From: a virus
Taxonomy: Duplodnaviria; Heunggongvirae; Uroviricota; Caudoviricetes
IMG/VR virus record: IMGVR_UViG_3300020045_003677
Span: 60,098 to 124,097 of that record
Length of the DNA stretch: 64,000 nucleotides
Reading direction: 5' to 3' (one strand)
Under the pieces are notes generated by a model. The model did not search any database, had not been told where the DNA came from, and saw nothing but the letters and a program-made list of their open reading frames with translations. Shown piece by piece: positions 7,100 to 60,126 of the stretch (position 1 is the stretch's first letter; every line of letters starts with the position of its first letter). A program made the position numbers and the translations under genes.

Positions 7100-8140
7100 C
7101 TTGGAATCATTAGGATGGAGCTATTGTAGGGGTAGCTCCTCCTTACTTACCCGCTGGCGCGTCTTCGGACATTCGCCGGTGGGTTTAAGTTGATTATTCA
7201 CAATGCCAACATATAATAATCATGAAATGAGGCTTCTGCTATCATATAAAGATTATTGAGAGCTATGGATAGCCTAACACGCTGATCTACTCTCCAGAGT
7301 GCCCGGATACACAAATAAAACGTCGGGATAAATTTGCTACCGTTGAATATTAATAATGGTAGGACGGAGGTGGCGGAACCTCATCTTTACGGGCGTGAAC
7401 CGTGACAAACCTGTGGGGCTAGTGTGTGATATGTAGAGTGGCAAGCGACAGCTTCTCTATATACGAAACGGATCGTCGCTGATCCAGTATCACAACTTAG
7501 TGCAGACTTTAAAACCAGGTAGTCTAGGGTACATATTGAGAATATGTGCGGAGACTTTAAGAACCTTACAACCTCAACAACATCTGATAGTGTTGTAATA
7601 CAGTTCAATGCGGATCTATCGGACCGACATAACACTGCACGATGGGATACATTCAAGCTAACCAGACGCCGACTATGGCGTTCATGGCATGCACTAGTAT
7701 ACCCTGCGACGTAATCCTTATAATGTGCTCGTTGAACAGCACGGTATCGTATGGTCAAGCGATATGATAGGGTGAATTTATAACCATACAAACAAAAGCA
7801 ACACCTGGATGCTGGTAAATCAGGTAGGGACATGAACCGATGTCTCGAGTCTTCGACATTATTAAAAAGCTCAACTATCCCGAGTAAGCCAATGCTATGT
7901 CTAGATACGACAGATGCGGCCTCTACGCCGGAGAAATGAGAAAAGCCAACCACCAAGGAGAGCGGTATAGTGGAAACGAGACTGAGTGCCTATGCATATC
8001 ACCATCGTTTTCACTTCCGTTACTCGGTTCTCTTTTGACAGCTGGTTCATATATTAAGTCGTCTCACTATGATGATTTAGTAATATTGGACCAACCATAA
8101 TTATCAATTTCTAGTACCAAATCTTGTATTAATACTTAAA
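7100..8140. ncRNA. Candidate structured non-coding RNA region. About 1 kb, GC-rich and without an ORF.
   Basis: No credible ORF on the plus strand. A long hairpin at about 7149-7190 carries a UUCG tetraloop. Further hairpins include acgcc-gactat-ggcgt at about 7666. GC content is clearly higher than the flanking genes. Confidence 0.3.
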
Positions 8141-25150: not shown

Positions 25151-25222
25151 GGGGAGGTGGTGCAGTGGTAGACACGCACAGCTATGGTGTGAATTGCGTC
25201 GGTTCGAATCCGACCCTCCACA
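25151..25222 (+). tRNA. tRNA-like gene with a non-canonical anticodon arm (possible UAU with C33) and an acceptor mismatch. May be a pseudogene or decoy.
   Basis: The T-arm gtcgg-ttcgaat-ccgac and D-loop cagtggtaga are canonical. Acceptor ggggagg/cctccac has a G-A mismatch at 2-71. Best anticodon stem is 4 bp (caca/tgtg) with loop gcUAUgg. Confidence 0.4.
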
Positions 25223-25419
25223 CAAAAATTGAGCCATGAAAAGAGAAAAGAAAGTAAATGTTAATGATGATGAGCGCTGGCCTGCTTACAATGAACTTAA
25301 GTCTAAGGGTGATACTATAAAAGCTAACAAGCTTAAAGAAGAGATCCTAGATTCATATAAATGGAAGAAGCCATGTCATCATGTGGCAGAGAGGTAATCA
25401 ATAACTTAAATTTATAACA

Positions 25420-36993: not shown

Positions 36994-38421
36994 ATGTTTC
37001 AACCAAATTTTTGTACAGCGACTGACTTCTATAAGTTTGGTCACTGGTGTCAATACCCTAAGGGTATGGATAGTATCAACTCATACTGTGAGGCCCGTGA
37101 AGGTGCCCTATTTCATGATATTGTGTGGAATGGTATTCTACCAATACTAAAGGACTTCTTTGAAGGTGACGTGATTACACGTGATAACATTGAAGAGGCC
37201 AATGAAATCGTAACCGGTATGGGTGGTCATCCAGCATATTTTAACCGGGCCATGTGGGAAGAGATTCTCACTAAACACAATGGTAGATTACCGTTGTCTA
37301 TTAAGGCATTGCCCGAAGGTACTGTGGTACCGCCATCAACTCCACTATTCTGTATTACCAACACAGGTGGAGCTATTACACAACCACTTGTAAATCACAG
37401 CGAAACTCTATTAATGCATGTCTGGAGCTCAACTACGGTCGCGAGTGTATCTCGCTATATCAAGAAGAACATTCTGGATAAGTGGGCTAAGTTAACCGGA
37501 ACACCCGAACTAACCATATGGCAGTTGCATGACTTCGGATTCCGAGGTGTAAGTAGCTGGCAGACTGCAGTATACTCTGGTATGGGTCACTTGATCACAT
37601 GTCGTGGTACTGACACGTCTGATGCTGTTCGCGGTATTCGTCATTATTATGGTACAAAAGAGATCTTTGGAAACTCTGTATGGGCTACTGAACATTCTGT
37701 CGCAACTTCTTATGGTCCAGGTCGTGGTGAAGTAGACTATGTTCTTGCTCAGCTTAATGCAGCTCCAGATGATGCAATTGTATCTATGGTTATGGATAGC
37801 TATGACACGTTCAACTTTGCGCAGAATGTTGTTGGTCATCCAGAAGTACTAGCTAAAATCAAAGCACGTTCTGGTCGCACAGTATTCCGTCCTGATAGTG
37901 GTGATCCGGTAGCCGTTAATCTGAGAGTATTGGATATTCTTGGTAACGTATTGGGATTCACTGTCAATGGACTGGGTTACAAAGTATTGAACCATAATGT
38001 AGGAGTGTTACAGGGAGATGGTATGGATTACCAAACCATTGATACCCTGTTTGAAGCCATTATAACAATTGGTCACTGGTCATCTGACAACTTAGTTGTT
38101 GGTTCGGGTGGTGGGTTGTTGCAGAAATGGAATCGTGACACACTGAGATTTGCTATCAAGGCATCTCATGGTTCAATCAATGGTGTTGGGTTTGATATCT
38201 TCAAAGACCCAGCAACAGCAAATGTTGGTAATGAAACAAAAGCATCGAAACGTGGACTGTTAAAGGTTGCGCAGATCGGTAACACATTCACTACTATCAG
38301 TTCCACTACTTGTGCTCCTAACATGTTTAATCAATATGTTGATGCCATGGAACCTATTTTCCTCAATGGGGATATTATGGGTACACATGATTTCAATCTG
38401 ATCAAAAAGAGAGCAATCTAA
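36994..38421 (+). CDS. nadV: Nicotinamide phosphoribosyltransferase (NAMPT, NadV-like).
   Basis: N-terminus ATDFYKFGHWCQYP matches the TDSYK motif. LHDFGFRGVSS, RGTDT, FRPDSGDP, LQGDGMD and GSGGGLLQK are colinear with NAMPT signature blocks. Confidence 0.85.
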   Translation: MFQPNFCTATDFYKFGHWCQYPKGMDSINSYCEAREGALFHDIVWNGILPILKDFFEGDVITRDNIEEANEIVTGMGGHPAYFNRAMWEEILTKHNGRLPLSIKALPEGTVVPPSTPLFCITNTGGAITQPLVNHSETLLMHVWSSTTVASVSRYIKKNILDKWAKLTGTPELTIWQLHDFGFRGVSSWQTAVYSGMGHLITCRGTDTSDAVRGIRHYYGTKEIFGNSVWATEHSVATSYGPGRGEVDYVLAQLNAAPDDAIVSMVMDSYDTFNFAQNVVGHPEVLAKIKARSGRTVFRPDSGDPVAVNLRVLDILGNVLGFTVNGLGYKVLNHNVGVLQGDGMDYQTIDTLFEAIITIGHWSSDNLVVGSGGGLLQKWNRDTLRFAIKASHGSINGVGFDIFKDPATANVGNETKASKRGLLKVAQIGNTFTTISSTTCAPNMFNQYVDAMEPIFLNGDIMGTHDFNLIKKRAI

Positions 38422-39446
38422 TGAGAGAACTATTGGAATTACTTACCGCAGCTGGGAAAACGTTTTGTATAACGGAACTTGGCTGCGGTATGCCGATAGC
38501 TCATGGATTCATGGGACTATCTGGGTCCAGTAAGGTACTTAAGTATGCTAACTGCCCCTATAGCAAAGAAGTTCAGGAGATCATGATACCTAACATCTTA
38601 CATAGATCCGTTAGTGTTGAACGAGTTGGGTTTCTTTTAAAAGCTTTGGAGAATTACGATGCAGACTTTGATATTGTGTATTCTTTACAAGCTGGTGAGG
38701 ATAAAGAATGTCATGGGTTCATCGCCATTAACTCCGAGGGTATGGTGGAAGGTGCTGTTGCATATCATTTTACCTTTGGTTACAATATTAGTAAAGTTGA
38801 AGCCGGTGCTAGAATGATTGGGTTGTTTATTGCTATTGTCAAGAGACATGTACTCAAGATAAACTTCAACATGGGTCAGATCGACGGCGCCTTCATACAA
38901 CATGGTAGGGATTGGGACTTTTATCCTGAACTATTACCACTTAACCACAGATCATTTGTAATCACCAATGGTGGAGAGTGGATGCGTACTACAGTATTCT
39001 TGAGAGATCTAGGTCATCTTGGAATTATCAAAGGAAGCTTTAATCCATATCATGAAGGTCATGAACAATTGGTGGAGGAAGCTTTCCGTCAGCAATATGT
39101 TCCAGTATTATCGCTTACAGGAGAAACTGTTGAAGGAAAGAAAGCCAGTGCTACCGAGCTTGTTGGAAGAGCTAAAACAACTCAGCGTAACTGCATCATA
39201 GATTCGGACAACACAAAGTTTATGGATCTTATTATGGTTCTACGCAATATCTATCGGTTTGAGGGTCAGATTGGTATCTTTGCAGGTATCGATGTGTATC
39301 ATAGGATGGAAGAAGCTTTGTTCGAATTACCCCATGTTCAGTTCTATGTCTATCACAGAGAAATGAATGTGGATAATGTGTTATTTCTGTCATCAAAGTT
39401 TCCTACAACATCATCTACTAAAATCAGAGAACATGCACTCGATTAA
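38421..39446 (+). CDS. Two-domain protein. The C-terminal half is a nicotinamide/nicotinate mononucleotide adenylyltransferase-like domain. The N-terminal half is unassigned, possibly CinA-C/PncC-like.
   Basis: GSFNPYHEGH is the (H/T)xGH nucleotidyltransferase motif, with a downstream SxT-region. N-terminal ITELGCGMPIA weakly resembles the CinA C-domain AESCTGG motif. Confidence 0.65.
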   Translation: MRELLELLTAAGKTFCITELGCGMPIAHGFMGLSGSSKVLKYANCPYSKEVQEIMIPNILHRSVSVERVGFLLKALENYDADFDIVYSLQAGEDKECHGFIAINSEGMVEGAVAYHFTFGYNISKVEAGARMIGLFIAIVKRHVLKINFNMGQIDGAFIQHGRDWDFYPELLPLNHRSFVITNGGEWMRTTVFLRDLGHLGIIKGSFNPYHEGHEQLVEEAFRQQYVPVLSLTGETVEGKKASATELVGRAKTTQRNCIIDSDNTKFMDLIMVLRNIYRFEGQIGIFAGIDVYHRMEEALFELPHVQFYVYHREMNVDNVLFLSSKFPTTSSTKIREHALD

Positions 39447-39882
39447 AACACTACTCGAGAAAGCCTGGGCAGATGCTGCTTCAAAGGGGTATGACCACGT
39501 TGTTATTGCAGTTGACCTGCATGGTACTATGGTTGATTCCAAAGTATTCAATGCAGCTCCGGGTAACATCGAAATGAAGGTGCAGGCGTCAATATTTAGA
39601 AGTGCTGTAACGGCATTAAAACTATTGTCTCAGCATCCTTCAGTCACAATGTTTATCTACAGTGGTACTAAGCGCAGAAAACTTGAGCAAGTACTTGCAG
39701 AACTGATGAGTAAATACGGTATTGAAATCGATATCGATTATTCTTCAGATACTCAACACTCTATACAGTCATTTAAGAACAAACCATATTTTGGTATCTT
39801 ATTGGATGATAAAGCAGGGTTTGACCCCGATACTGATTGGGATGAAATCACACGAATCTTACCTAACTTAAAAACGCTATGA
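39433..39882 (+). CDS. HAD-like hydrolase, putative phosphatase or nucleotidase, with Asp+2 replaced by His.
   Basis: VVIAVDLHGTMVDS is a motif-I-like DxDGT, here D-L-H-G-T. GILLDDKAG matches motif IV. The start is set at ATG 39433, and the track ORF starts at 39367. Confidence 0.4.
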   Translation: MHSIKTLLEKAWADAASKGYDHVVIAVDLHGTMVDSKVFNAAPGNIEMKVQASIFRSAVTALKLLSQHPSVTMFIYSGTKRRKLEQVLAELMSKYGIEIDIDYSSDTQHSIQSFKNKPYFGILLDDKAGFDPDTDWDEITRILPNLKTL

Positions 39883-40409
39883 CACCAGAGCAAAAACAAC
39901 AGATGGAGGAAACTCCATTTCCAATAACGTTTTCTTGTATTGATCTCATCCTCACATGTAGAGGGTGTTTGGTATTTATTACCAAATCATACAAAGACAA
40001 GTATTTACGCTTGTGTGGCGGTATGGTTGATACAACCGACCTCTCTCTTAAAGCAGCAATGCTTAGAGAAGCCCATGAAGAGATGGGGGTTGACCCACGG
40101 TTTGTTCGTATAGATGAAGGATTCACTGTACAATCATTTCTTACCCAAGACTATGGTAGGTACAATCCGGATACTTCGAAGCATCGACTTCGTACTACAT
40201 TATTCACTGCTGAGTATGTACACCCACGAATTGGTACTCCACAAGAGGAGTTACTGAAAGCAGGAGATGATGCGGATGGGTTGAAATTTATTCCCATCCC
40301 ACAGTTATACGACATCAACTGGGTGTTGGAGAACGTAGCCCCAGGGCATATTCCATTACTTTATTATTGGATGGGACAGCAATATGACGCAAATCATCGG
40401 TTATTTTAA
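39879..40409 (+). CDS. Nudix hydrolase (ADP-ribose pyrophosphatase-like).
   Basis: Nudix box GGMVD...LKAAMLREAHEEMGV (GX5EX7REUXEEXGU). Confidence 0.75.
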   Translation: MTPEQKQQMEETPFPITFSCIDLILTCRGCLVFITKSYKDKYLRLCGGMVDTTDLSLKAAMLREAHEEMGVDPRFVRIDEGFTVQSFLTQDYGRYNPDTSKHRLRTTLFTAEYVHPRIGTPQEELLKAGDDADGLKFIPIPQLYDINWVLENVAPGHIPLLYYWMGQQYDANHRLF

Positions 40410-42477: not shown

Positions 42478-45039
42478 ATGGCTGTAATCGAAGACAAATA
42501 CATCGAGACCGAGGGTGGGATTAGAAAGAACATCGACAAGGACAGTATGCCCTTAGCGTTGGACATCCTACAGAGAGGGCTTTATGCATTTCCAATTCCA
42601 TCTACAATTAGGGAGTTAGCATCAAACTCCTATGACGCTATTAAGGAACGTGACGTTGCTTTAGCTATCATAAAAGGTGAAACTTCTGTTGAAGATCACT
42701 TCGATGTAAACAAACAAGATGGTATCTATCACTCATCCGGGTGGGATCCATCATATTTTGACGAAGCTTGGTTATCTAAAGACCCTTGTGTTCATATTTA
42801 TTATGAGGAAGGTAGTGCTAAGGATGTACTGAGAATAGTTGACAACGGTGTTGGGTTAGGACAGAAAAGACTTGTCGGATACTTTCAACTTAACTACTCG
42901 AGTAAGCGTGCTAATAAGGATGCTTTAGGTAAGTGGGGATTAGGAAGTAAAGTTGCTTTATCGTTAAATGTTGACTCTTTTAGAGTTATCAATCGTTATA
43001 ATGGTAAGAGAACTAAATTCGATGTGTACTTGGATAAAGTGGATCCAATCATACCAAGGTTTAGTGATGGTAAGGAGAATGGCAGCATTCATCTTACTGA
43101 TACGTGTACTGCGTATTACGAAGAGACCACCGAAATGAATGGTCTTGAGATCCAGATCGATATCAAGAAGCATAACAAGAAGTTATTGTTTGAAGCTATG
43201 CAGTCTCAGTTAATGTATATGCCTGATATTAAGGTGTACACAAGAGCTCAGGGTGCTATGACTTATACCATGATGGATATACGTGCAAAAGAATTATACC
43301 GCGACAACGATATTATTATCTCCGAGTCCACAGTATATGACAGACCGCACATTCTTATTGGTGCCGGCAAAGCTTTGATCAACTATGGATTGATTGCTTT
43401 TAACGAGCTGGAAATCGAACCAAAACGAGGCTCTGTAGGACTTATCATGGACATTAATGACATAGAGGTTACTCCGTCGAGAGAAGCTCCTGTGTGGTCC
43501 ACAAAGACCCGAAAAGCCGTACTCGAAAAATACAACAAGGTAACTAAGACTGCAGCATTATTTGTAAACCAGAGTCTGGCCGCAGAGACTGACTATATTG
43601 ACTGGATGGTGAAAGCCGACCAGACTATGTCGGCCTTAAAGCATGGTAGTAACTCTAGTGTGATTGGTAGATTGGCTTCGATCATCGATGCTTCTTCTAT
43701 CACGAATGTCACTTATCCACTGAACTCTCAAGTAGAGTTCTCTCATAAAGTTAATGAGATGTTAGGTACTAAGCTGACAGCTAGAACAATACGCTATGAC
43801 AGGTATAGCAGAAAGATAGAAAGAAAGGCCATCGAGAGTCCCGGTGCATTATCTAAGATTGTGTACTTTACCGACGGTGCCGCTGATCCAATGAAAGACA
43901 GGTACATTTTCGATACCCAAGGTGAGTTTGTTCTTATCAACGGTAAAGAGGATTACAAATCTGACTTCTTTGCTAAGTTGGTTCTATCTTCTGGTAGACT
44001 GCAGTCGTACGATGACGTAATTGTTCCTGATGATATCCTTGAAGTCTACAAGACTGCAGAGATTGAAGAAGAGGAGACGTCAACTGATGGTACTACTACC
44101 ACTGTAGCTATTGACCGTAGTGCTATTCGTAAGGCTAATGCTATGATCCCGGTTCACTTTATTGCTAAGAACTACACTTCATATGTGTTCAGTTCTAAAG
44201 ATACCTATACCAGTGACATGCTATCGTTATTTGATAATGATGAAGTAGCTGTATATGGAACCTCTTTGGACAGAAATGACATGAAGGAGATTGCCTCGTT
44301 CTTTCCACACGGGTACATAAAATGCTTCGATAACTGGAGAGATACCTCTAGTAAAATCGACCAGGTTACCAACATCCCTCATTATGCATGCTTCAACCCC
44401 CACGCTAAGCCGATCAACATGATCATCATAGCTAAAGAGAACGTAAAGTATGTACTCGGTTCCGACAAGTATAAAACTATTCCGGAATTTGTGATTAAGT
44501 CCTATGATAAGGCGAAAGGTAAATTAGTATTCTCCGACGATATCAGAGCCGCAGCCACTGCCAATGTTATTGAGACAATGGTTAAGGAGTATGGCTTAAT
44601 GGGTATTCTTCGAGATGAGAAGACAGAGTTTATCTTTGATGAGGATTACAAGGAGTTTGTACATTTATACCGTGGTTGGTTTGAGAATGGTTATGACGCA
44701 CCCCAGGCGATTAATCGCACAGATTTCTATAGTCAAGCTATAGCCATTCAACTATCTAATTCGGGTATTGTACCAATTGATGTGGATAACCTTATCGTTG
44801 AGCTCAACGCCATGGTTCCGGAATGCTTATGCGATTCCCTGGATCAGGTTAAAGACGTCGATATTCTGGATATTGCATTGATTAAAAAGTGGCAAGCTAC
44901 CTTCATAAAAGTAGCCCCATTCAAGGACCTCATCTCTTTATTTGTGGATAAATATTATAACAATGGTTCTACAACCAAGGTTATTGTTGGTGCACAGATC
45001 AAAGAATACATCACTTTGAAGAATGATGAAATCGTATAA
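42478..45039 (+). CDS. GHKL-family ATPase domain protein (Hsp90/HtpG-, MutL- or MORC-like N-terminus), 853 aa.
   Basis: RELASNSYDAI matches the ELxxNSxDA Bergerat motif I (Hsp90: ELISNASDAL). VDNGVGLG matches motif II DNGxGh (HtpG: SDNGVGMT). Confidence 0.6.
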   Translation: MAVIEDKYIETEGGIRKNIDKDSMPLALDILQRGLYAFPIPSTIRELASNSYDAIKERDVALAIIKGETSVEDHFDVNKQDGIYHSSGWDPSYFDEAWLSKDPCVHIYYEEGSAKDVLRIVDNGVGLGQKRLVGYFQLNYSSKRANKDALGKWGLGSKVALSLNVDSFRVINRYNGKRTKFDVYLDKVDPIIPRFSDGKENGSIHLTDTCTAYYEETTEMNGLEIQIDIKKHNKKLLFEAMQSQLMYMPDIKVYTRAQGAMTYTMMDIRAKELYRDNDIIISESTVYDRPHILIGAGKALINYGLIAFNELEIEPKRGSVGLIMDINDIEVTPSREAPVWSTKTRKAVLEKYNKVTKTAALFVNQSLAAETDYIDWMVKADQTMSALKHGSNSSVIGRLASIIDASSITNVTYPLNSQVEFSHKVNEMLGTKLTARTIRYDRYSRKIERKAIESPGALSKIVYFTDGAADPMKDRYIFDTQGEFVLINGKEDYKSDFFAKLVLSSGRLQSYDDVIVPDDILEVYKTAEIEEEETSTDGTTTTVAIDRSAIRKANAMIPVHFIAKNYTSYVFSSKDTYTSDMLSLFDNDEVAVYGTSLDRNDMKEIASFFPHGYIKCFDNWRDTSSKIDQVTNIPHYACFNPHAKPINMIIIAKENVKYVLGSDKYKTIPEFVIKSYDKAKGKLVFSDDIRAAATANVIETMVKEYGLMGILRDEKTEFIFDEDYKEFVHLYRGWFENGYDAPQAINRTDFYSQAIAIQLSNSGIVPIDVDNLIVELNAMVPECLCDSLDQVKDVDILDIALIKKWQATFIKVAPFKDLISLFVDKYYNNGSTTKVIVGAQIKEYITLKNDEIV

Positions 45040-45886
45040 CAGTAGGATAATTCCGGTATTACGCGACAAGACAGATAAGCTTTACATAGCAGATCTGGAC
45101 CGTACGGCACCGGAGAGATTCCCTTCTGATGAAACTGTACGTGGATTAATTGATCTTTACAAGAACAATGGTGATTTAGTAGCAAGGGATACCATCATTA
45201 CGTCGTTTGGGCGCTATGTGGTATCCATCGCAAAAAACTATCAGGAGCAGGGTTTATCTTTAGCAGATCTTATTAGCGAAGGTATCCTTGGATTGATGGC
45301 AGCGATAGAACAGTTTGATACCAGTTTAACCACTAAGTTTGTGACCTACAGTAATGTAAGTATAAGCAGACAGATGAGGGAAGCCTTGGATCAGACTAAC
45401 AGGCCTGTTAAAATACCAAAAAACATCCGCAACAGTCAGATGAAAGTGAGGGAGAAAGTGCACGCTGAATCGTTAAGAGGTCGCGAATTGTTTGAAATCC
45501 TAGATTCAATAGAAGATAGGGATCAAGAATTTGCTACCAACCCTAAGATTTTTCAGAAATTTAACATGAATACACGACCAGTTGGAGAAGAAGATGATTT
45601 AGATCCTCTTGAGAATGTATTGTTATTGTCAGTTGACGGAAGTTCCCCCATGGAAGATTCTGATATGGACCTAGATCTTGGTAGAGTTTTCTCTAAATTA
45701 ACCGAGAATGAAGTCAAAGTAATCAAGGCCTTTTATGGATTTTCTGGAGACTATTTAAAGTCTTCTATGAAGCTAATTGGCGAGTCATTGGGGATGTCTG
45801 TGGAGCAGGTACGAAAGCTTAAAACCTCTGGTTTAGTGAAACTTAAGAGCAAAAAAAGTAAGGAAATACTCTCTAAATATCTATAA
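45023..45886 (+). CDS. Sigma-70 family RNA polymerase sigma factor.
   Basis: DLISEGILGLMAAIEQFD matches region 2.2 (DLIQEGNIGLMKAVDKFD). FVTYSNVSISRQMREAL matches region 2.3/2.4. A C-terminal region-4-like HTH is present (SLGMSVEQVRKLKTSGLVKL). Confidence 0.7.
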   Translation: MMKSYNSRIIPVLRDKTDKLYIADLDRTAPERFPSDETVRGLIDLYKNNGDLVARDTIITSFGRYVVSIAKNYQEQGLSLADLISEGILGLMAAIEQFDTSLTTKFVTYSNVSISRQMREALDQTNRPVKIPKNIRNSQMKVREKVHAESLRGRELFEILDSIEDRDQEFATNPKIFQKFNMNTRPVGEEDDLDPLENVLLLSVDGSSPMEDSDMDLDLGRVFSKLTENEVKVIKAFYGFSGDYLKSSMKLIGESLGMSVEQVRKLKTSGLVKLKSKKSKEILSKYL

Positions 45887-45940: not shown

Positions 45941-47137
45941 ATGTTAACAGTTAATGTAGTTAGTCATGGTGATACAAAAACCATCAACGGATCTTTGAAC
46001 GGAGCTAAATTTAACGTTCCTTTTAGTGCAGAACTTTTTGCTGGTTTAAAAGCTAAAGAAGCTGAGTTAGCGTCAATCGAAGACGTAGCGATGTTCGATG
46101 CTTGGACAATTGAAGTGAAAGCTTTGTTGGAAAACAAAGAAGTTGATATCATTGTTACGGCATGTCCTGACTTGATTAAAAACCCAAAAACCGGGTTCTA
46201 CTTCGTAAAAGTAGTTGATAATGGTGTTGAGAAAGTTTCCAAAACTCCGGTTCCAGAGAAACTAGTAGCAATCATCCTTGAGTCGGTTGAAAAAGAAATC
46301 GATCCAACTCCGCTTGTAAAAGCCTGGATTCGTTTCTTGCGTAACCCTAACTTCACCCCAAACAAAGCTGAACGTTTTGTAGACTATATCACTTCTGTGA
46401 TTGTGGATACCGAAGAAGCTCGTAGATTGGTTGAAGAAGAAGGATTCACTGCTGAAGTTGCAACCGCTCGTTCTATTTATAACGACGTGGCTATCACTCA
46501 GGAAGGTCTTATTGTAGCCAAAAAGTATGCAAAACTGCTTACTGAAGGTTGGGTTATTGATGCAGAAACCAACAAAGCTAAAAAAGCTCCTCTGTATCCA
46601 ATGACTCCGGACACCATCGACTTCCATAGTGGAAAAATCACTAAAGGTGAAGCTGTTTTACCTGAATTTGCCGAAGAATTGTTCTTCGAACCACCAGTAC
46701 AGGGTACTAGCGGTGATGAGTTCTTATCTGGTGATAACAAAGGTCACTTGATCGCTGTTGGTAAAAAACACACTTTGGAAAAATGGTCGCAGGTTAACAC
46801 CAACGACGATACCACTTGTGTAAAAGGTCTTCACGTTGGTGGATGGAGATACGTCTCTTCTTACAAAGGACTTAACTGTCAGTTGTTGGAATGTTTCGTT
46901 GACCCAGCTGAGATTGGTGCTATCTGCGATGTGAATCGTAACAGTGATGGTGCTATCCGTGTTCGCGAATACTTCGTTTATGGTGCTGTAGAAGGCCGTA
47001 ACAAAGGTATTTATCACTCTTCTAAATATGCTGCCATGAAGGACACCGAATGGGAAGCTTACAAAAAAGAAGCTGTGGAAAACAGTAACAAACTCGTTGC
47101 CAAAATCGCTGATTCGGTAAACGACATGGGGCTGTAG
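45941..47137 (+). CDS. Hypothetical protein.
   Basis: 398-aa ORF. Confidence 0.6.
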   Translation: MLTVNVVSHGDTKTINGSLNGAKFNVPFSAELFAGLKAKEAELASIEDVAMFDAWTIEVKALLENKEVDIIVTACPDLIKNPKTGFYFVKVVDNGVEKVSKTPVPEKLVAIILESVEKEIDPTPLVKAWIRFLRNPNFTPNKAERFVDYITSVIVDTEEARRLVEEEGFTAEVATARSIYNDVAITQEGLIVAKKYAKLLTEGWVIDAETNKAKKAPLYPMTPDTIDFHSGKITKGEAVLPEFAEELFFEPPVQGTSGDEFLSGDNKGHLIAVGKKHTLEKWSQVNTNDDTTCVKGLHVGGWRYVSSYKGLNCQLLECFVDPAEIGAICDVNRNSDGAIRVREYFVYGAVEGRNKGIYHSSKYAAMKDTEWEAYKKEAVENSNKLVAKIADSVNDMGL

Positions 47138-48718: not shown

Positions 48719-49837
48719 ATGAGTAGAGCCGAAACAATTCAAGCTATAAGAGATAGAATACTAAGTATTCCTCTTGCAGAAGTTCAGGCCCGTATAGCTG
48801 AGAAGTTTTACGGAATGGATAAAGTTGTTGAAGCTTTATACATGGGTACTTCAGCCGGTAAGAACATCATCTTATATGGTCCTGGTGGATTTGGTAAGTC
48901 ACAGGTAGTCAAAGAGTTTCTAAGTATAGTTGGGGTTGGTGCTCCGACAATTGTTGGTTATGAGGATATGGAGGTTGAGGCTTTGTTGGGAGTTCCTAAC
49001 ATTGAGAAGCTTACCAAACATTCTGTGTACGAATTAGCATTTGATAGAAGTGTATTTAGAGTCCCGGGCATATTAATTCTTGAAGAGTTTTTAGACGCCC
49101 GACCATCCACCGCAGCAGCCTTGAAGGATGTGTTGACGGAAGGAGGTCTCCGACAGGGAGGGTATTTTACTGAGTCTCTTATCAGTTCTGTTATCATTTG
49201 CACCAACAAGTCTCCGGAAGACGTCAGTATCGATGATTCGACTAGCGCTTTCTATAAGGAGAGGTTTCCAATTAGAGTAAAGGTTATATGGAACAACTTC
49301 TCACACGAGAGTTACTCCGATTTCTTATCTCTGATAAAGCCTGTGGAGTCTAAAGAACAACCGTTAATGTACGATGTATTAGCCGAGATGGCTTCACGTA
49401 CTGCTACTCTGGTTTCTCCTAGAATGGTTAAGGATGCATCAGATTTGATTGATATTCACAAGTCTGTAACTGTACTTAAGTTGGTAGAAGGGCTGGATTC
49501 GATAGAGTTGAGCGAGATGCTTACTTATTGTTCCATGGTCAAAGAGAGAGTGAAGATTAACGCTATCCTGAGTCAGGCTAGAACATGGTTATCTTCTCTT
49601 CAATCCAAACCACTTACTACTGTTAGGGTACTTACAGGAGCTATATCTGAGATAAACTATGTGGTAGCCAAATTAACAGAACTATCTGCTAAGCACCATG
49701 AGAATGCTATCGAAGTCATGACATTCATTAAAGAGTGCCAGGAGTTTGATCACGCTCTACGATACAGAATAGTTGCAGACTTAGACTCTGAGACTGAGAC
49801 AAAACTAAAATCAATATTCAATGGTACAGCATCCTAG
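48719..49837 (+). CDS. MoxR-like AAA ATPase.
   Basis: Walker A GPGGFGKSQV and Walker B ILILEEF. A vWA protein lies immediately downstream, which is a typical MoxR-VWA pairing. Confidence 0.6.
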   Translation: MSRAETIQAIRDRILSIPLAEVQARIAEKFYGMDKVVEALYMGTSAGKNIILYGPGGFGKSQVVKEFLSIVGVGAPTIVGYEDMEVEALLGVPNIEKLTKHSVYELAFDRSVFRVPGILILEEFLDARPSTAAALKDVLTEGGLRQGGYFTESLISSVIICTNKSPEDVSIDDSTSAFYKERFPIRVKVIWNNFSHESYSDFLSLIKPVESKEQPLMYDVLAEMASRTATLVSPRMVKDASDLIDIHKSVTVLKLVEGLDSIELSEMLTYCSMVKERVKINAILSQARTWLSSLQSKPLTTVRVLTGAISEINYVVAKLTELSAKHHENAIEVMTFIKECQEFDHALRYRIVADLDSETETKLKSIFNGTAS

Positions 49838-50903
49838 TTATGTTAGAAGCGTAGAAGACTATGAGATATCTGCTATGGCAAGTCGCCTTGGATATGTTAA
49901 TTATCTTCCTTACCAAGTTGTAAGAGACATGATGGCTATTCGTGGAAACCAGATTATGAATGATGGTAAGATAGTAGACTTGTGGCCTACACCATACAGT
50001 ACTGCTTTGATCGAATTATTTTCAATGTTTGATCAAACTATCATCAAAAGTAATAGCATCCTAGAATTTGCTGTAAATGTGCTGAAACTAATGTCTCGTA
50101 AAGTGAACCTCAGAGAGTTGGAGAAGAGTCTTTCTACTAAACAACCTGTACTTATCGACTTGGAAAGTAAGCAAGTAAACTATGCGGATGACCTTTCAGA
50201 AGTTAATCCAGAATACTTTGATATTCTTGGAATAGAGACTACTGGTATTCCTATTAACGAACTTGTTTTGCATCCAGATGTCTATGAAGTAATTCATTTC
50301 TACAATGGACTCAAACAGATTTCTGGTAGTCTTTTTCCTACGACTATTGTTACTAGGAACAAGATGACTAAAGTCAGTGATGTACATAAGGTGCGCCGGT
50401 ATAGGTTTGCTTTACCATCATTTCTTGCTGATATCGCATTAAAGAAACCATCTATCAAAACTGAAGAGGTTGAGATGAAGCAGAATAATAGTGTAATTGT
50501 AATGGTGGACGTATCATGGTCTACTACTCTCAGTTCAACCTATAATTCTATGGTTAAAGCGGTGTTCCTGAGCTTGTTGGACTCTTTCATAGATAATGAA
50601 ACCACTATTGATGTGCTGGAGTTCTTTAATTCCCCTTCAAGAGAGTTCACTATTTCAACAAAGGAAGAGCTGATAAACTATGTGAACTATAAACCTACAC
50701 CACAACTTGGTGCTAGTGGATGGAGTTCCATGGGAAAGTTCATGAAGAAATATGACGGCAAGACAGTAATCTTGATTACCGATGGTGAATTAGTAACTGG
50801 TCCAATATCTGGGGATCCTAAGCTATTCATTGTTTCAAATCGGTTCAATCGTAAGTTAGCTGACTTATCTTTTAATACAGATGGTAAATTTGTAGTAGTA
50901 TGA
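49821..50903 (+). CDS. von Willebrand factor A (vWA) domain protein.
   Basis: MIDAS-like motif VIVMVDVSWST (DxSxS) at about residue 230. Follows the MoxR-like ATPase. Confidence 0.55.
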   Translation: MVQHPSYVRSVEDYEISAMASRLGYVNYLPYQVVRDMMAIRGNQIMNDGKIVDLWPTPYSTALIELFSMFDQTIIKSNSILEFAVNVLKLMSRKVNLRELEKSLSTKQPVLIDLESKQVNYADDLSEVNPEYFDILGIETTGIPINELVLHPDVYEVIHFYNGLKQISGSLFPTTIVTRNKMTKVSDVHKVRRYRFALPSFLADIALKKPSIKTEEVEMKQNNSVIVMVDVSWSTTLSSTYNSMVKAVFLSLLDSFIDNETTIDVLEFFNSPSREFTISTKEELINYVNYKPTPQLGASGWSSMGKFMKKYDGKTVILITDGELVTGPISGDPKLFIVSNRFNRKLADLSFNTDGKFVVV

Positions 50904-52192
50904 GTTCAACATTAACAGATGAACAAGCCGATGCCGCCGTTAAGATCAAGGATTTCCTATCTAAGCCGGCAGTTCCGGATAGTTTCTTCTGTCTAACAGG
51001 CCCTCCTGGAAGCGGTAAAACATACATGCTGAAAGAGGCTTTAAAGGGCGAACCAAGAAAAATATACGGTGGTACCATATCACATGCGGCAAAAGAAGTA
51101 CTGGGACAATCTATCGAAGAGTGTTTCACTGTAGCTCAGCTGCTTGGAAAGGTTGCTACCAGTAACAGTGAAGAAGTAAGATTTATTAGTGGTGGCCGTA
51201 AGAAGATAACAGATGCTAAGATTCTGTTGTTGGATGAGGTATCAATGATAGATGATATGGAGTACGATACTATTATGCATGAAGTCAATGCCCTTGGTAT
51301 TCACTTAATAGTAGTAGGGGATCCTTATCAGTTACCACCTGTAAGTCAGGATCATCAGTCTAAATTCTTTGATACTATTCATGCAGAACTTACCACCTCT
51401 CAGAGATTTGAGGGGCCTATTGGTGAGCTAGCAGTAAGAATTAGAGAAGAGATTAGAAAGATAAATCATGATGAGGCCTTTAATAAGTATGTACTTGACG
51501 ATGAGTACGGTCGAACCAATGTGATTCGCAATGGGACCGGGTTTCGATTTGAAAACAATATCTATAAAATGGTCGACAGTGTTGCGGGAGAAATCTCAAA
51601 ACATCGTGGTGATAAAGAACATGCTCGAATTCTAGCATATAAAAACTCTACTATAAAACTACTCAACAACTCAGTTAGGATAGCCATCTACGGCGATAAT
51701 TCTAAGCAATTCGAGTATGGAGAGATAGTAATCTGTAATGGAGGGTTTTCTGCTGGAAAGATCCCAGTACTGTACAATGGTCAGGTACTATCAGTAGATG
51801 ACTCTGTTGTTGCACTTGGACCTTACGAAGTACCTTGTGTCTATCTTAAGTTGAATGGTATACCATCACCCCCGACGGGAATTCCGGTTGTATTGAATAC
51901 ACCAGAAGCGATGGCTATCTATGAACATAAGAGAGCACAATCCTATAAGTTAGGAACTGAGTTCGGTCAATGGGGTCAGTATAATATGTTCCTACAGTCG
52001 TTTGCTAAATTCGACTATGCCTATGCAACTTCTCTATATAAAGCACAAGGTATGTCTTTAAACAAGGTGTATGTGTGTGAAGGGGAGATTATGGATGTCA
52101 AGCCGATAGAGTGGAGACAAAGGTTTCAAGCTTTATATGTTGCTATGACTCGCGCTCGTAAAGAGCTAACAATTTACAACAAAAACGGATAA
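50900..52192 (+). CDS. Dda/RecD-like superfamily 1 DNA helicase.
   Basis: Motif I GPPGSGKT, II LLLDEVSMI, III VVGDPYQLPPV, V ATSLYKAQGMS and VI YVAMTRARKEL. Confidence 0.85.
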   Translation: MSSTLTDEQADAAVKIKDFLSKPAVPDSFFCLTGPPGSGKTYMLKEALKGEPRKIYGGTISHAAKEVLGQSIEECFTVAQLLGKVATSNSEEVRFISGGRKKITDAKILLLDEVSMIDDMEYDTIMHEVNALGIHLIVVGDPYQLPPVSQDHQSKFFDTIHAELTTSQRFEGPIGELAVRIREEIRKINHDEAFNKYVLDDEYGRTNVIRNGTGFRFENNIYKMVDSVAGEISKHRGDKEHARILAYKNSTIKLLNNSVRIAIYGDNSKQFEYGEIVICNGGFSAGKIPVLYNGQVLSVDDSVVALGPYEVPCVYLKLNGIPSPPTGIPVVLNTPEAMAIYEHKRAQSYKLGTEFGQWGQYNMFLQSFAKFDYAYATSLYKAQGMSLNKVYVCEGEIMDVKPIEWRQRFQALYVAMTRARKELTIYNKNG

Positions 52193-52547: not shown

Positions 52548-53486
52548 ATGTTTAACGAAATAAAAACAGTGCTAAGCACAGATGAGAATGTGGTTAAATT
52601 CGTGTTCACTACCACAGATGCCGTAGCGGAAGCAGTTCTATACAAGTATCCAACCTATGAAGATCGTACAGTTATTTGCTGTTCGACTCAAAGTGGATGT
52701 CCGGTAGGCTGTGTATTTTGCGGTACAGGCAAGTTCTTTACACGTAACTTAACTGCAGATGAGATAGTTCAGCAGATAAAGACTGCAGTAGACCACACAG
52801 GTATTGATCCGGTCTTCTCGAAGAAGTTCCAGATTATGTTCATGTCAATGGGAGAGCCGTTATTGAATATCGACGCTGTTATTGACGCTATTGAGATGCT
52901 GAGTATGATGTATCCAAATGCTGACTTGCTAGTAAGTACGTCTTTACCCAGCAATGCCCTGTTTAAACATGGTATATCTGCAGGTAATATGGATACTAGT
53001 AATTTAGACAAGCTTGTTAGTCTTGCTAGAATATTTCCTAAGATTGGTCTACAAATTTCATTGCATGAATCTACTGACCAAGCTCGTACGAAGCTGATCC
53101 CTACAAACACTGCAACTATATTTCAGATATCTCAGGCAGCAAAAGCATTTCTGTATGCTACTGGACGTAAAGCATTCTTAAATTATTGTGTACATGAAGG
53201 TAACTCTTCTGATGTTGATATCCAACATCTACTTGCTGCGTTTCATCCAAATGAATGCGAGTTCACTTTATCTGTTATCTGTGAGAAAGACCAATCTATG
53301 AAGAATGCTATCGAAGAAAAGGTTGCTATGGTAGTTGACTTTGCATCACGTATGGGTGCAGTAGGATATTCGACGCGAGTATTCAACCCGGCAGGACAAG
53401 ATGATATTGGTGGTGGATGCGGACAGTTATGGTTTGTTCAGGAATGGGCTAAAAAACATAAAAATGAAGACAGAACTTGCAGTTAG
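52548..53486 (+). CDS. Radical SAM enzyme of the RlmN/Cfr family (RNA adenine C2/C8 methyltransferase-like), lacking the N-terminal domain.
   Basis: TVICCSTQSGCPVGCVFCGTGKFFTRNLTADEIVQQI aligns with RlmN [37 protein letters not shown] (CX3CX2C). IMFMSMGEPLLNI matches VVMMGMGEPLLNL. QISLHESTD matches AISLHAPND. C-terminal GGGCGQLW matches the conserved DAACGQL cysteine. Confidence 0.75.
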   Translation: MFNEIKTVLSTDENVVKFVFTTTDAVAEAVLYKYPTYEDRTVICCSTQSGCPVGCVFCGTGKFFTRNLTADEIVQQIKTAVDHTGIDPVFSKKFQIMFMSMGEPLLNIDAVIDAIEMLSMMYPNADLLVSTSLPSNALFKHGISAGNMDTSNLDKLVSLARIFPKIGLQISLHESTDQARTKLIPTNTATIFQISQAAKAFLYATGRKAFLNYCVHEGNSSDVDIQHLLAAFHPNECEFTLSVICEKDQSMKNAIEEKVAMVVDFASRMGAVGYSTRVFNPAGQDDIGGGCGQLWFVQEWAKKHKNEDRTCS

Positions 53487-53832
53487 ATCATCCTCATTTG
53501 AAACATATAAGATTTTTAAAAGTGATGTGGAGAAATTAGGATTTAGGTATGAACATAACTTTGTTCCGTTTGAAGAGCTTAGTATGGAGCGGACTTCCTG
53601 TTTGTTCTTTTCCAGATCCTGGCATAGTACCAACGATTTTATGTTTTCGTTTTCTAACCCATCCGACGATAAAGTAATAATTGATATAGACTATGCTGAT
53701 GGGTATGTGCGTGGTATTCAAGCTGCCACTAAACTCTATAGCAATAGATCTAAAGTGCCTGTCTCAATAAAAGAGATTGCTGCATGGAAAAATTGTGCTG
53801 TAGCCGATCTACAAATAGTATTCGATGAGTAA
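53464..53832 (+). CDS. Hypothetical protein.
   Basis: Internal ATG at 53464 of track ORF 53401..53832. Either start overlaps the radical SAM gene. Confidence 0.45.
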   Translation: MKTELAVRSSSFETYKIFKSDVEKLGFRYEHNFVPFEELSMERTSCLFFSRSWHSTNDFMFSFSNPSDDKVIIDIDYADGYVRGIQAATKLYSNRSKVPVSIKEIAAWKNCAVADLQIVFDE

Positions 53833-54299: not shown

Positions 54300-54743
54300 A
54301 TGAATAAAGAATTCACACAACTGAATGGTAAATACAACGATGATACTTATCCTACGTTCCCATTCGTTTCGAAAAATAAAATAACCCTTCTTAAATCTGG
54401 GCTGTACAAAAAACACAAAGCTAACTTCAGAGGCATCACAGCTACCTTTAACAAGGACTCTGGTGAGTATGAATTTCCATTGTATGGAATGTACCTCGTG
54501 AAAGAGGATATGGTTATTGTTCCGGATGAACTAGAGTTAAACGAGAGTAAACAAGCATTTCTTAATGCAGCGATTACTGCCGGTTATATTCAATCCAGCA
54601 AGCCACCTAAATTTGAAACTGTTAAATTTCCCGCTGATTCACCGGAAGCTAAATTGGCTTTATCAAATAAGGTAGACTTTCAATTTAGTCAGGTAATAGA
54701 CGGGTCTCAAGAAGACGAAGTCTATGATCCATCTCGTAACTAG
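54300..54743 (+). CDS. Hypothetical protein.
   Basis: 147-aa ORF. Confidence 0.55.
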   Translation: MNKEFTQLNGKYNDDTYPTFPFVSKNKITLLKSGLYKKHKANFRGITATFNKDSGEYEFPLYGMYLVKEDMVIVPDELELNESKQAFLNAAITAGYIQSSKPPKFETVKFPADSPEAKLALSNKVDFQFSQVIDGSQEDEVYDPSRN

Positions 54744-56898
54744 TAGACCTAATTGCTATAGCTGGGGAGAACTTCGACACAAGGATATAATCCCTGGTAA
54801 CTATGATGAGTTTGTTCATTGGAATAATCATCACAAAGACCAGCAGCTCGATAGTGAAACCCCTATGTTTGATGACGGCCCTAACGTTCATCAGGATAGA
54901 AAGATGCTAATGCTTCAGTTAGGCAGTCTAGATGGTGAAGATCAATGGCTATTCGATTTTGTAGGATTGGACGCTGAATGGATAGATCTACTTAAGGTTT
55001 GCTTAGCAGACCCTAGTATGACTTACTATATTCATAATGCCAAGTTTGACTACATAGTCGTTAAGAACACCTTAGGAATATCTCTAAGCAATGTTCACGA
55101 TACTTTCCTTATGAGTAAAGTGTTGAATACTGGGCTTGAGTTACCTATGGGATATCATAGTCTTGCTGGATGTCTTGAACGGTTTCTTAATATCGTTTTA
55201 GATAAGGCTAGCCAAACCACATTTACTGAGGCCCCGTTTACTGAGACTCAATTAGTCTATGGTGCTGTGGATGTTATGTTCTTGGGAGAGTTATTCGATC
55301 ATCTTAAAGATTTGCTTAAACAGTTCGACCTATGGTATTTGTATGATACTGTAGAGCGCCGTGTAGTTGTTGTCTATGCTGATATGGAGATTACTCCTAT
55401 GAAGTTCGACTCTACTCACTGGATGACTGTGGCTAAGCAACTGGAAATAGAACGTGACCTGGTACTAGCTGAGCTAAACAAAGAAGTTCTTGCGGATGCG
55501 AAACTGGTTAAACTACTTAGCTGTGAAGATAATGCATTGGGCGAATGCCTGATACAACCCGCAGATGAGTTTAAGGTGAACTGGAATTCCTCTTCCCAAA
55601 GAAGGTTATTACTGAGTCGGTTAGTCCCATCACTACCAAGTGATTGTACAACTAAACCTCAAGTGAAAACTTGGTTTAAAGAGAACATCGAGGCCCTTAC
55701 ACAGGATGAGGTAGATTGTTTGAATCACTTCATGGTTAGGGATTATGATGACATCAATATTATTTTGGTATCCAAACATAAGCAATGGTTACTAGACAAT
55801 GGTATGTTTGTGCCGAAGGGAACTATCCTTATCAACTGGAACTCCAATCAGCATAAACTGATGATATTCAACCATTACTATCCAAATCTAAACGATACCA
55901 ATGCGAAAAGTCTCAATAGGATCACTAAGAATGCTTTAATAAATCACTTCAAGAAGTTTGTGTCTGCTCAGAAACGTGTAGGTACTTATGGTGAGGGGTT
56001 TATGGAGAAGAATGTACGTCGCGACGGAATGATAGCACCAATGAACTGTAAGCAGATTCTGAATACCGGTAGGATAGCATTTGGCATTCTACTGCAGATA
56101 CCAGCAGACTCTAAGTTCAGGAATGCCTTCTTACCACCAGAAGACGATTGGGTATTTGTTGACTCGGATTATTCTAGTGCTGAAGTAGTTATCATGTCGT
56201 ACGCAGCACAGGAAAAGGCCTTTCTAGATGCTATTGTTGAAGGCAAAGACTTACACTCTATGTCTGCTTCACTAGTATTCAAAGATAAGTGGGTCGATAT
56301 TGCAGAACCTGGATGTGTTAACTTGATCAATGGATCTCAATGTGATTGTCCTCAGCATCAAAAGCTTAGGAAGTTCTCTAAATCTATCACGTTTGGATTA
56401 GCTTATGGTCTTTCGTACCATGGATTAGCTGAACGGCTTGACATTACCAAAGAAGAGGCTAAAGAGCTAATCGAGAAATTCTTCGCTGCCTTCCCGGCAC
56501 TAAGAGTCTACTTTGATGGTTCTAAGCAGTTCTCTATGACTCATAACTATGTTGTAAGTCTTGCTCCTACGCGTAGGATTCGGTTCTTTCATGAGCCTGA
56601 AAATAACGGCGAGAAGGATGCGATAGGTAGAGAAGGTATGAACTTTGGAATTCAAGAGACCAATGCAACCATGCTTAAGATTGCTTTGATTAAACTAGCT
56701 AAAAGGATAAAAGATGAGAATCTTCCTGCTAGGATACATCTACCGGTGCATGATGAGATACTATCTTCCTGTCACAAAGATATAGCAGATTACATGGTAG
56801 TGGTACAAGAGCAATGTATGATAGAAGCTGGGGAGATATTCCTCGGTAAAGGACTTCTTGGTGTAGACACCAAAATACTAACGAAATGGGCTAAGTAA
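54724..56898 (+). CDS. Family A (Pol I-like) DNA polymerase with a 3'-5' proofreading exonuclease domain.
   Basis: Exo I GLDAEW, Exo II NAKFDYIVV, Exo III YGAVDVMFL. Pol motif A DYSSAEVVIM, motif B RKFSKSITFGLAYG, motif C HLPVHDEIL. Confidence 0.9.
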   Translation: MIHLVTSRPNCYSWGELRHKDIIPGNYDEFVHWNNHHKDQQLDSETPMFDDGPNVHQDRKMLMLQLGSLDGEDQWLFDFVGLDAEWIDLLKVCLADPSMTYYIHNAKFDYIVVKNTLGISLSNVHDTFLMSKVLNTGLELPMGYHSLAGCLERFLNIVLDKASQTTFTEAPFTETQLVYGAVDVMFLGELFDHLKDLLKQFDLWYLYDTVERRVVVVYADMEITPMKFDSTHWMTVAKQLEIERDLVLAELNKEVLADAKLVKLLSCEDNALGECLIQPADEFKVNWNSSSQRRLLLSRLVPSLPSDCTTKPQVKTWFKENIEALTQDEVDCLNHFMVRDYDDINIILVSKHKQWLLDNGMFVPKGTILINWNSNQHKLMIFNHYYPNLNDTNAKSLNRITKNALINHFKKFVSAQKRVGTYGEGFMEKNVRRDGMIAPMNCKQILNTGRIAFGILLQIPADSKFRNAFLPPEDDWVFVDSDYSSAEVVIMSYAAQEKAFLDAIVEGKDLHSMSASLVFKDKWVDIAEPGCVNLINGSQCDCPQHQKLRKFSKSITFGLAYGLSYHGLAERLDITKEEAKELIEKFFAAFPALRVYFDGSKQFSMTHNYVVSLAPTRRIRFFHEPENNGEKDAIGREGMNFGIQETNATMLKIALIKLAKRIKDENLPARIHLPVHDEILSSCHKDIADYMVVVQEQCMIEAGEIFLGKGLLGVDTKILTKWAK

Positions 56899-60077: not shown

Positions 60078-60126
60078 TTAAATTGTTGTAACTAAAACCA
60101 TTGGTTAATAACAAATTTTACATAAA

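Follow-up and report, generated by a model that had tools for sequence, protein, structure and literature searches.

A phage-encoded short RlmN-like radical SAM enzyme belongs to a separate family with recurrent links to NAD+ salvage genes

RlmN and Cfr are radical S-adenosylmethionine (SAM) enzymes that methylate RNA: RlmN makes m2A2503 in 23S rRNA and m2A37 in tRNAs, while Cfr, Cfr(C) and Cfr(D) make m8A2503 in 23S rRNA and confer resistance to phenicols, lincosamides, oxazolidinones, pleuromutilins and streptogramin A (PhLOPSA). Their class A methyl-transfer mechanism is defined by a pair of cysteines equivalent to C118 and C355 of E. coli RlmN, and in Cfr four serines (S103, S151, S153 and S187) bind the phosphate on the 3' side of the adenosine to be modified (PMC13001441). 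RlmN depends on extended tRNA contacts, an isolated anticodon stem-loop being left unmodified (PMC5130265). A second group of described systems concerns NAD+, whose metabolism is central to the conflict between phages and bacteria: NAD-depleting defences are opposed by the NAD+ reconstitution pathways (NARP) NARP1, NARP2 and NARP3. NARP2, formed by Nampt/NadV and Nmnat-Nudix/NatV as in Vibrio phage KVP40, occurs in ~1.1% of phage genomes (10.1101/2024.02.11.579819). Here we analyse a gene, called X hereafter, that resembles the former enzymes and recurs among genes of NAD+ salvage. X lies at 52548..53486 on the + strand of a 64,000-nucleotide stretch of a Caudoviricetes virus (IMG/VR record IMGVR_UViG_3300020045_003677, positions 60,098 to 124,097), referred to as the window. 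The initial annotation had described X as a phage-encoded, truncated RlmN/Cfr-family methyltransferase. Its phage origin was borne out by the 13 tRNAs, NadV, rIIA/rIIB-like genes, sigma factor, FEN, Dda-like helicase and PolA present in the window. A protein identical to X is encoded on a 175-kb JGI contig. Positions given below for features of the window refer to its + strand.

The X open reading frame (ORF; 312 aa, ATG start) is intact and cannot be extended upstream. On sequence profiles and a predicted fold, its product belongs unambiguously to the class A radical SAM methylase (RlmN/Cfr) superfamily. Among the NCBIfam profiles, the RlmN model TIGR00048 matched X with an E-value of 1.6e-30 and the Cfr models with E-values of 1e-21 to 1e-23. 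The corresponding sequence matches in the PDB were RlmN 6fz6 (E 1.2e-21), E. coli RlmN (E 9e-16) and Cfr 9p0p (E 9e-15), and the Pfam Radical_SAM score of 28.6 bits fell just short of the gathering threshold (GA) of 29.5. An AlphaFold2 (AF2) model built from an alignment of 50 relatives (pLDDT 87.3, pTM 0.88) was matched by Foldseek to RlmN structures with E-values of 1e-19 to 1e-14, the next radical SAM enzyme coming at 1e-06. The model displays the partial TIM barrel, the beta-extension and the C-terminal loop of RlmN (E. coli 3RFA/5HR7), the closest structure being 6FZ6 from Sphaerobacter thermophilus.

The RlmN/Cfr motifs reported by the initial annotation were confirmed. The predicted [4Fe-4S] ligands form the C51-x3-C55-x2-C58 motif (CPVGCVFC, aa 51-58, 52698..52721), and the M99-SMGEP-104 segment (52842..52859) aligns with the GGE-like SAM-binding motif MGMGEP of RlmN and Cfr. 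C44 (52677..52679), within the motif VICCSTQ, aligns with the adduct-resolving cysteine C118 of E. coli RlmN and C105 of Cfr. The C-terminal CGQL cysteine is C291, in the G288-GGCGQLW-295 loop (53409..53432), and aligns with the methyl-carrying C355 of RlmN and C338 of Cfr. X therefore shares with Cfr the superfamily, the fold and the cysteines that define the mechanism. It differs from RlmN by a Gly-rich loop one residue longer before the methyl-carrying cysteine and by an insertion after strand beta3 ('STS'), located at aa ~133-150 (52944..52997) in the MAFFT alignment. The insertion is longer in the X of the window than in most relatives and is modelled with low confidence (pLDDT <50 at residues 140-144). 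Strand beta3 was mapped on the family-wide MAFFT alignment, backed by the AF2 strand 126-131 and by relatives devoid of the insertion; a pairwise HMMER alignment that placed the RlmN 'STSG' strand on this window-specific insertion was dropped in favour of that mapping.

A further architectural difference with RlmN and Cfr concerns the N-terminus. Residues 1-45 of X (52548..52682; AF2 strands 4-9, 15-21, 26-34 and 36-45) form a beta-sheet extension leading into beta1 and occupy the spot where RlmN and Cfr join their HhH2 domain, according to the AF2 model, the alignments and the domain description of PMC13001441. Since the alignments of X start at RlmN residues 71-91, the HhH2 N-domain is missing, which corresponds to ~75-85 aa; the loss of this domain had been anticipated, at an overestimated size of ~100 aa. 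A split-off RlmN N-domain encoded by the 109-aa ORF upstream of X was ruled out, as this ORF has no Pfam match and no similarity to that domain.

The short length is a property of a whole family. Nearly all of the best 120 of 6424 database homologues measure 290-340 aa and share >50% identity with X, so that the length of X is not a truncation artefact. A search with a family profile retrieved 165 representatives (50% identity) at E<=1e-30. We detected 297 relatives in IMG/VR, mostly on contigs of 30-420 kb, ~12 GenBank phages with 45-51% identity (Stenotrophomonas, Xanthomonas, Salmonella (Arash), Aeromonas and Vibrio phages plus a 462-kb uncultured phage) and 84 relatives in GTDB species genomes, from which 79 loci were retained. 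Isolates are found among the latter: Ornithinimicrobium murale, two Mycolicibacterium strains and Desulfosporosinus paludis. In the PLSDB plasmids the short family was not found, only ordinary Cfr/RlmN being recovered at <=31% identity, and a nucleotide search with the 6 kb around X gave no match among GenBank phages. The best PHROG, phrog_24834, matches X partially and weakly (E 6.4e-13, aa 39-237); it has no functional annotation and is filed as unknown. Family members are labelled in databases as 'RlmN', '23S rRNA (adenine2503-C2)-methyltransferase' or 'hypothetical'. In phages BUCTxx99 and JGB6 the homologue is labelled 'prohibitin family protein', apparently in error.

Conservation was assessed on 144 sequences of the family, of phage and of cellular (bacterial and archaeal) origin. 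C291 is kept in 144/144 and position 44 is a cysteine in 142/144, while the cluster cysteines and the SAM motif are invariant or nearly so. The same holds for the residues shared across the superfamily (K17, E28, N107, S130, S171, H173, R180, Y213 and N219) and, in total, for ~45 positions including all the catalytic ones, so that the family appears capable of catalysis and subject to strong purifying selection. A family-specific set is also near-invariant (Y32, Y34, R40, Q95, M97, Q169, T240, S242, R277, F279, W295, Q298 and W300). Three cysteines not found in RlmN or Cfr complete the picture, C214 (53187-53189) and C245 (53280-53282), invariant in nearly all sequences, and C45 (52680-52682), kept in ~94%. 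By secondary structure, C45, C214 and C245 lie at the C-terminal ends of beta1, beta5 and beta6, respectively, and may constitute an auxiliary redox or metal site. A gene shorter than rlmN and scoring below the cutoffs of the known families might be taken for a host rlmN that was captured and is now decaying and without function. With ~45 near-invariant positions over 144 sequences, a uniform length and a confidently predicted fold, this idea is effectively refuted and deserves hardly any credence.

The position of the short family relative to RlmN and Cfr was addressed with five RlmN and three Cfr sequences taken from annotated records and aligned with the family. A neighbour-joining (NJ) tree was calculated from 61 family representatives and these 8 references over 294 columns, with 200 bootstrap replicates. 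The short family (support 200/200) falls outside both the Cfr (199/200) and the RlmN (174/200) clades. Mean Kimura distances were 2.07 between the family and RlmN, 1.91 between the family and Cfr and 1.32 between RlmN and Cfr, and the identity of the family to the references is limited to 23-28% (RlmN 23-27%, Cfr 25-28%). Consistently, X scores far under the cutoffs of the dedicated models, with 106.3 bits against 290 for TIGR00048 and 77 against 633 for PRK11194 on the RlmN side, and 76-81 bits against cutoffs of 468-550 on the Cfr side (81.3 against 530 for NF000424 and 76.3 against 550 for TIGR04432). By these sequence comparisons X is a member of a third, uniformly short clade of class A radical SAM methylases and not a truncated RlmN or Cfr. 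The comparison with the RlmN and Cfr clades called for by the initial annotation thus places X in neither of them, within the same superfamily, and the description as a truncated enzyme had to be given up.

We then considered the residues contacting RNA. The rRNA contacts of the cryo-EM complex of Cfr with rRNA (PMC13001441) were mapped onto the family alignment, with the STS, SLH and CGQL motifs and the AF2 strands as anchor points. The contacts common to RlmN and Cfr are swapped for other residues in the short family. The Cfr/E. coli RlmN pairs R184/R206, S187/T209, N288/N307 and R327/R344 correspond to A125, L128, S242 and F279 of the family, and R185/R207 to a variable position (D126 in X). 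The clamp holding the phosphate in Cfr (S103/S151/S153/S187) is T116/N172/V174/T209 in RlmN and V42/Q95/M97/L128 in the family. The contacts specific to Cfr are not conserved either: W101, S103, S151, S153, H286 and F330 are replaced by R40, V42, Q95, M97, T240 and A282, and T325 is also not conserved. In addition, the net charge of the family is more acidic than that of RlmN and Cfr. From these replacements we infer that substrate recognition differs from that of RlmN and Cfr, and the adenosine acted on may be something other than a nucleotide inside an RNA chain. A few nucleotide-proximal residues of Cfr are kept or kept aromatic, Y97 as Y34, R249 and K250 as R207 and K/R208, and Y252 as F210.

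These results bear on the possibility that X is a minimal RlmN/Cfr, making m2A or m8A at 23S A2503 and/or at A37 of host or phage tRNAs, with translation reprogramming or ribosome protection as an outcome. It is the activity of all characterised relatives, and the catalytic apparatus is conserved in X together with the four nucleotide-proximal residues just mentioned. The phage also encodes 13 predicted tRNAs, one of which, tRNA-Glu(UUC), carries A37 and U38 as in RlmN substrates (PMC5130265) and is the only tRNA of the window with this resemblance. These tRNAs are located at 13.1-32.5 kb, that is 20-39 kb upstream of X, so that the large tRNA complement noted beside the gene exists in the window and is not adjacent to it. 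The absence of HhH2, the loss of the RNA contacts common to RlmN and Cfr, the separate clade with scores far under the cutoffs, and a plasmid survey returning ordinary Cfr/RlmN only all speak against such an activity. It would moreover be redundant, as hosts already encode RlmN (checked for E. coli); the hosts of the other isolated carrier phages presumably encode a canonical RlmN too. Finally, it leaves the gene contexts described below unexplained: RlmN genes are found next to rodZ-ispG or rsmB, whereas the short family is found in NAD salvage contexts, including a Nudix fusion. Altogether we regard a canonical rRNA or tRNA methylase as improbable, and the assignment of X to an RlmN/Cfr orthologue making m2A2503, m2A37 or m8A2503 was not sustained. 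A phage-borne relative of Cfr would raise an antibiotic-resistance concern. The evidence points elsewhere, and the suggested role in antibiotic resistance or ribosome reprogramming found no support, the partners of the family being NAD+ salvage genes and not ribosome or tRNA-modification genes.

The gene neighbourhoods were explored at two levels. In phages, the ORFs around X were clustered over 88 loci, and the sole widely recurrent neighbours were Nampt/NadV, NMNAT-Nudix and phosphoribosyl pyrophosphate (PRPP) synthetase (Prs), NadV being the commonest; small conserved neighbours did not extend beyond single lineages. In the GTDB loci, the top neighbours were NadE, PncA, Nudix, PncB and NadD. 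A tblastn survey was then carried out with 15 NAD-enzyme queries on flanks of 6-10 kb, a locus being counted when an NAD gene other than Nudix was present. Detection relied on crude ORF calling and BLAST, the lineages are partly dependent and some 'genome' loci are mis-binned phage contigs; on this basis, such a gene was found in 13/40 phage lineages (75% identity), in 17/77 genome loci and in 21/61 clusters (70% identity), dispersed across the whole family tree in phages, bacteria and archaea. The nearest NAD gene stood at <=2.5 kb in 13/13 of these phage lineages and at <=300 bp in 8 of them, while random placement within flanks of this size would give a far wider spread of distances. The base rates are low by comparison, as NadV/Namat homologues were found in 2014/50,697 phage records (4%) and NARP2 in ~1.1% of phages.

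The gene maps show NAD genes on both sides of X, often with overlapping stop and start codons. Examples are pncA-pncB-X-nadE-(small radical SAM)-nadD in a Bacilli metagenome-assembled genome (MAG; locus L148), the O. murale isolate with pncA-X-nrtR (L144), where NrtR consists of a Nudix and an NrtR winged helix-turn-helix domain, pncB-pncA-nadA-X-ADP-ribosylglycohydrolase-GNAT-nadE-nudix-prs in a Woesearchaeota MAG (L157), X-pncA-pncB-nadD in Saccharibacteria (L125), prs-X-nadD::nadK (L161) and nudix-X-nadE-nadD-cinA (L145). X is thus a recurrent partner of the genes of the bacterial Preiss-Handler salvage operons (pncA-pncB-nadD-nadE, NrtR regulon). In phages it is likewise a recurrent operon partner of the NARP2 genes, with the arrangements nadA-natV-nadV-X (L096), natV-X-nadV (L082), prs-X-nadV (L076) and nadA-X (L016). 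In the largest phage lineage (26 loci) pncA, pncB, NMNAT and Nudix genes are found 1-7 kb downstream of X. Prs and NadV adjoin X in Vibrio phages, and in Salmonella phage Arash the annotated NadV and NatV lie 12.6-15 kb upstream of X on the same strand. A fusion of X with a Nudix domain (L180 2043-3449) is encoded directly upstream of an NAPRTase-family (NadV/PncB-type) gene and an NMNAT gene, in two variants on two contigs. In NARP2 of the KVP40 type the Nudix domain is fused to NMNAT, whereas in this member of the short family it is fused to X.

Several other signals were searched for around X. An Rfam scan of seven cellular loci revealed no NAD riboswitch near X, and the PADLOC defence models matched neither X nor its neighbours. 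In many bacteria nadD groups with the ribosome-biogenesis genes rsfS and rlmH; neither was seen at the X loci examined. Two further observations concern the loci described above. In the Bacilli operon a 233-aa radical SAM protein is encoded between nadE and nadD (L148 8815-9516) and was not found in the other loci. An HD domain resembling dGTPase (dGTP triphosphohydrolase) is joined to a remoter short relative, found on two contigs (L181 724-3003).

Taken together, the third clade, the missing HhH2, the lost common RNA contacts and the embedding in NAD operons suggest a role in NAD+ metabolism rather than the methylation of A2503 or A37. We accordingly consider that X could be an active RlmN-type methylase that works in concert with NAD+ salvage and has a non-canonical substrate, a proposal to which we give an even chance. 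Judging from the conserved residues, the ping-pong chemistry of RlmN is the likeliest: one SAM would methylate C291, and the [4Fe-4S] cluster held by C51, C55 and C58 would cleave a second SAM. The resulting 5'-deoxyadenosyl radical would activate the S-methyl group, which would add to an sp2 carbon in the substrate's ring before C44 resolves the adduct. By analogy with the C2 and C8 positions of adenine, the nucleophilic S-methylene radical is expected to add readily to electron-poor heteroaromatic rings. As substrate, an adenine (or pyridine) ring would be likeliest, either in a nucleotide of the NAD pathway or in an ADP-ribose-type molecule. A more specific version, in which X would be the first class A methylase acting on a free nucleotide by C-methylating the adenine or pyridinium ring of NAD+, nicotinic acid adenine dinucleotide (NaAD), nicotinamide mononucleotide (NMN) or ADP-ribose, is put forward tentatively and is itself rather doubtful. 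In phages, X would act as an accessory to NARP2-like rebuilding of NAD+ during infection.

A number of observations weigh against a partnership with NAD+ salvage, besides the limits of the survey given with its counts and the four nucleotide-proximal residues kept from Cfr. To our knowledge, no class A radical SAM methylase acts on a non-RNA substrate. Most NadV-carrying phages lack X, which therefore is no obligatory step of the pathway. In the window itself X is 14 kb away from the NAD genes, inside the replication module. X lies in or beside tRNA arrays in several phage loci (L001/L088, L016, L075, L091 and L095, and also L127, L135 and L162). The clearest exception to the NAD linkage is Stenotrophomonas phage ANB28 (complete, 108 kb; L177 23068-24225), where X is located inside a tRNA cluster and where no NAD-salvage gene is detectable in the complete genome. 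An RNA ligase, RtcB or CCA-adding enzyme was found near X in 8/61 clusters, and RNA repair in phages is established to use NAD+ via KptA, 2H, Macro and NADAR proteins (PMC9503650).

This use of NAD+ makes an RNA-repair-linked role a live rival. X would be an RNA-directed enzyme of NAD-dependent RNA repair or tRNA protection. It would recognise its substrate otherwise than RlmN does and methylate a tRNA, the end of an RNA, or an RNA that is ADP-ribosylated or NAD-capped, for instance to shield or restore tRNAs hit by anticodon nucleases; NAD genes would stand nearby because repair consumes NAD+. Besides the tRNA arrays and the repair enzymes just described, a calcineurin-like phosphoesterase near X in 11/61 clusters and an RtcB-type RNA ligase ~10 kb from X in ANB28 are in keeping with this possibility, and RNA-decapping enzymes exist among Nudix domains. 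The cellular operons, on the other hand, hold genes of NAD salvage and regulation only and no RNA-repair gene, and the clamp on the 3'-phosphodiester is lost. Adjacency to tRNAs is seen in a minority of loci only, without any consistent isoacceptor type next to X, and is little informative as the tRNA arrays of large phages span accessory regions. We thus hold an RNA-repair role to be unlikely, though somewhat less so than that of a canonical rRNA or tRNA methylase.

In the window, X belongs to a block with the gene order FEN, MoxR-like ATPase, unknown gene, Dda-like helicase, 109-aa ORF, X, three small ORFs and PolA. The Dda-like superfamily 1 (SF1) helicase (50900..52192) is its upstream neighbour and the family A DNA polymerase (54724..56898) its downstream neighbour. 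The MoxR-type AAA+ ATPase (bpMoxR/AAA_5) and an overlapping 360-aa protein without family match occupy 48719-50903, a pair kept in the related locus L014. The position of X between helicase and polymerase, also observed in L014 and L018, could suggest a DNA-modifying enzyme of the replication module that methylates adenine carbons in phage DNA. The helicase-X-PolA order is seen again only in these close relatives, other GenBank phages differing, and X is accompanied by NAD genes or tRNA arrays elsewhere. As such an activity has no known precedent and X has no DNA-binding domain, DNA modification appears very improbable. As listed, the downstream 143-aa ORF (53401-53832), without family match, shares 86 nt with the 3' end of X; an internal ATG near 53464 would shrink this overlap.

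The NAD genes of the window are carried by the same strand as X and lie 13-14 kb upstream of it, the interval being filled by rII, sigma-factor and replication genes; the spacing in phage Arash is the same. NadV/Nampt (36994..38421), 14 kb upstream of X, was identified by Pfam NAMPT_N and NAPRTase, by phrog_448 (412 bits) and by tblastn. It is followed by a 341-aa protein (38421..39446) that is tentatively NMN adenylyltransferase-like, on a weak Pfam match to CTP_transf_like (E 2.7e-4, residues 203-337) with neither PHROG nor PDB support, and by a Nudix hydrolase (39879..40409; Pfam NUDIX E 2.4e-8, phrog_9999). Together with a 171-aa ORF, these genes compose a NARP2-like module at 36994-40409.

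With regard to previous work, full-text literature searches returned no report of a link between X and NAD salvage. X is no described component of NARP1, NARP2, NARP3 or NAD salvage, and the papers on NARP1/2 and NARP3 and the viral NAD-ADPr census of Iyer et al. 2022, consulted on this point, mention no radical SAM or RlmN-like protein associated with NAD salvage. The superfamily itself is known; what appears new is a third branch of class A radical SAM methylases, distinct in architecture and context. The presence of a relative of RlmN within NAD operons would surprise a specialist, and this embedding points to an undescribed step or accessory of NAD metabolism. If the substrate were indeed a free nucleotide, radical methylation of the RlmN type would extend beyond RNA, and a new branch of NAD metabolism would exist in Candidate Phyla Radiation (CPR) bacteria, Firmicutes, Actinobacteria and DPANN archaea. 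Large phages would then have co-opted X beside NARP2-type rebuilding to blunt NAD-depleting immunity, for example through an NAD derivative that resists NADases or blocks signalling. Compact and highly conserved, the family has members in systems that can be cultured, namely Salmonella phage Arash, Vibrio phages and Ornithinimicrobium murale.

Elsewhere in the window, the NAD module is separated from the replication genes by genes for a rIIA-like 853-aa protein (HATPase_c_3; 42478-45039), a sigma-70-like factor (45023-45886) and a rIIB-like protein (45941-47137). A SPFH/Band 7 protein (31583-32440) is encoded at the end of the tRNA region. Four of the tRNAs predicted by ARAGORN are unusual (25151-25223, 28245-28319, 28736-28811 and 32449-32530), and all four also score above the tRNA threshold of Rfam. 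One of them, labelled 'Pyl' by ARAGORN, resembles an amber suppressor in its CUA anticodon, and the three others have anticodon calls of 4 nt or 2 nt. Lastly, a full-length Hatchet ribozyme (Rfam RF02678) was detected at 7383-7520 with 71.7 bits for a gathering threshold of 51 (E 2e-12).

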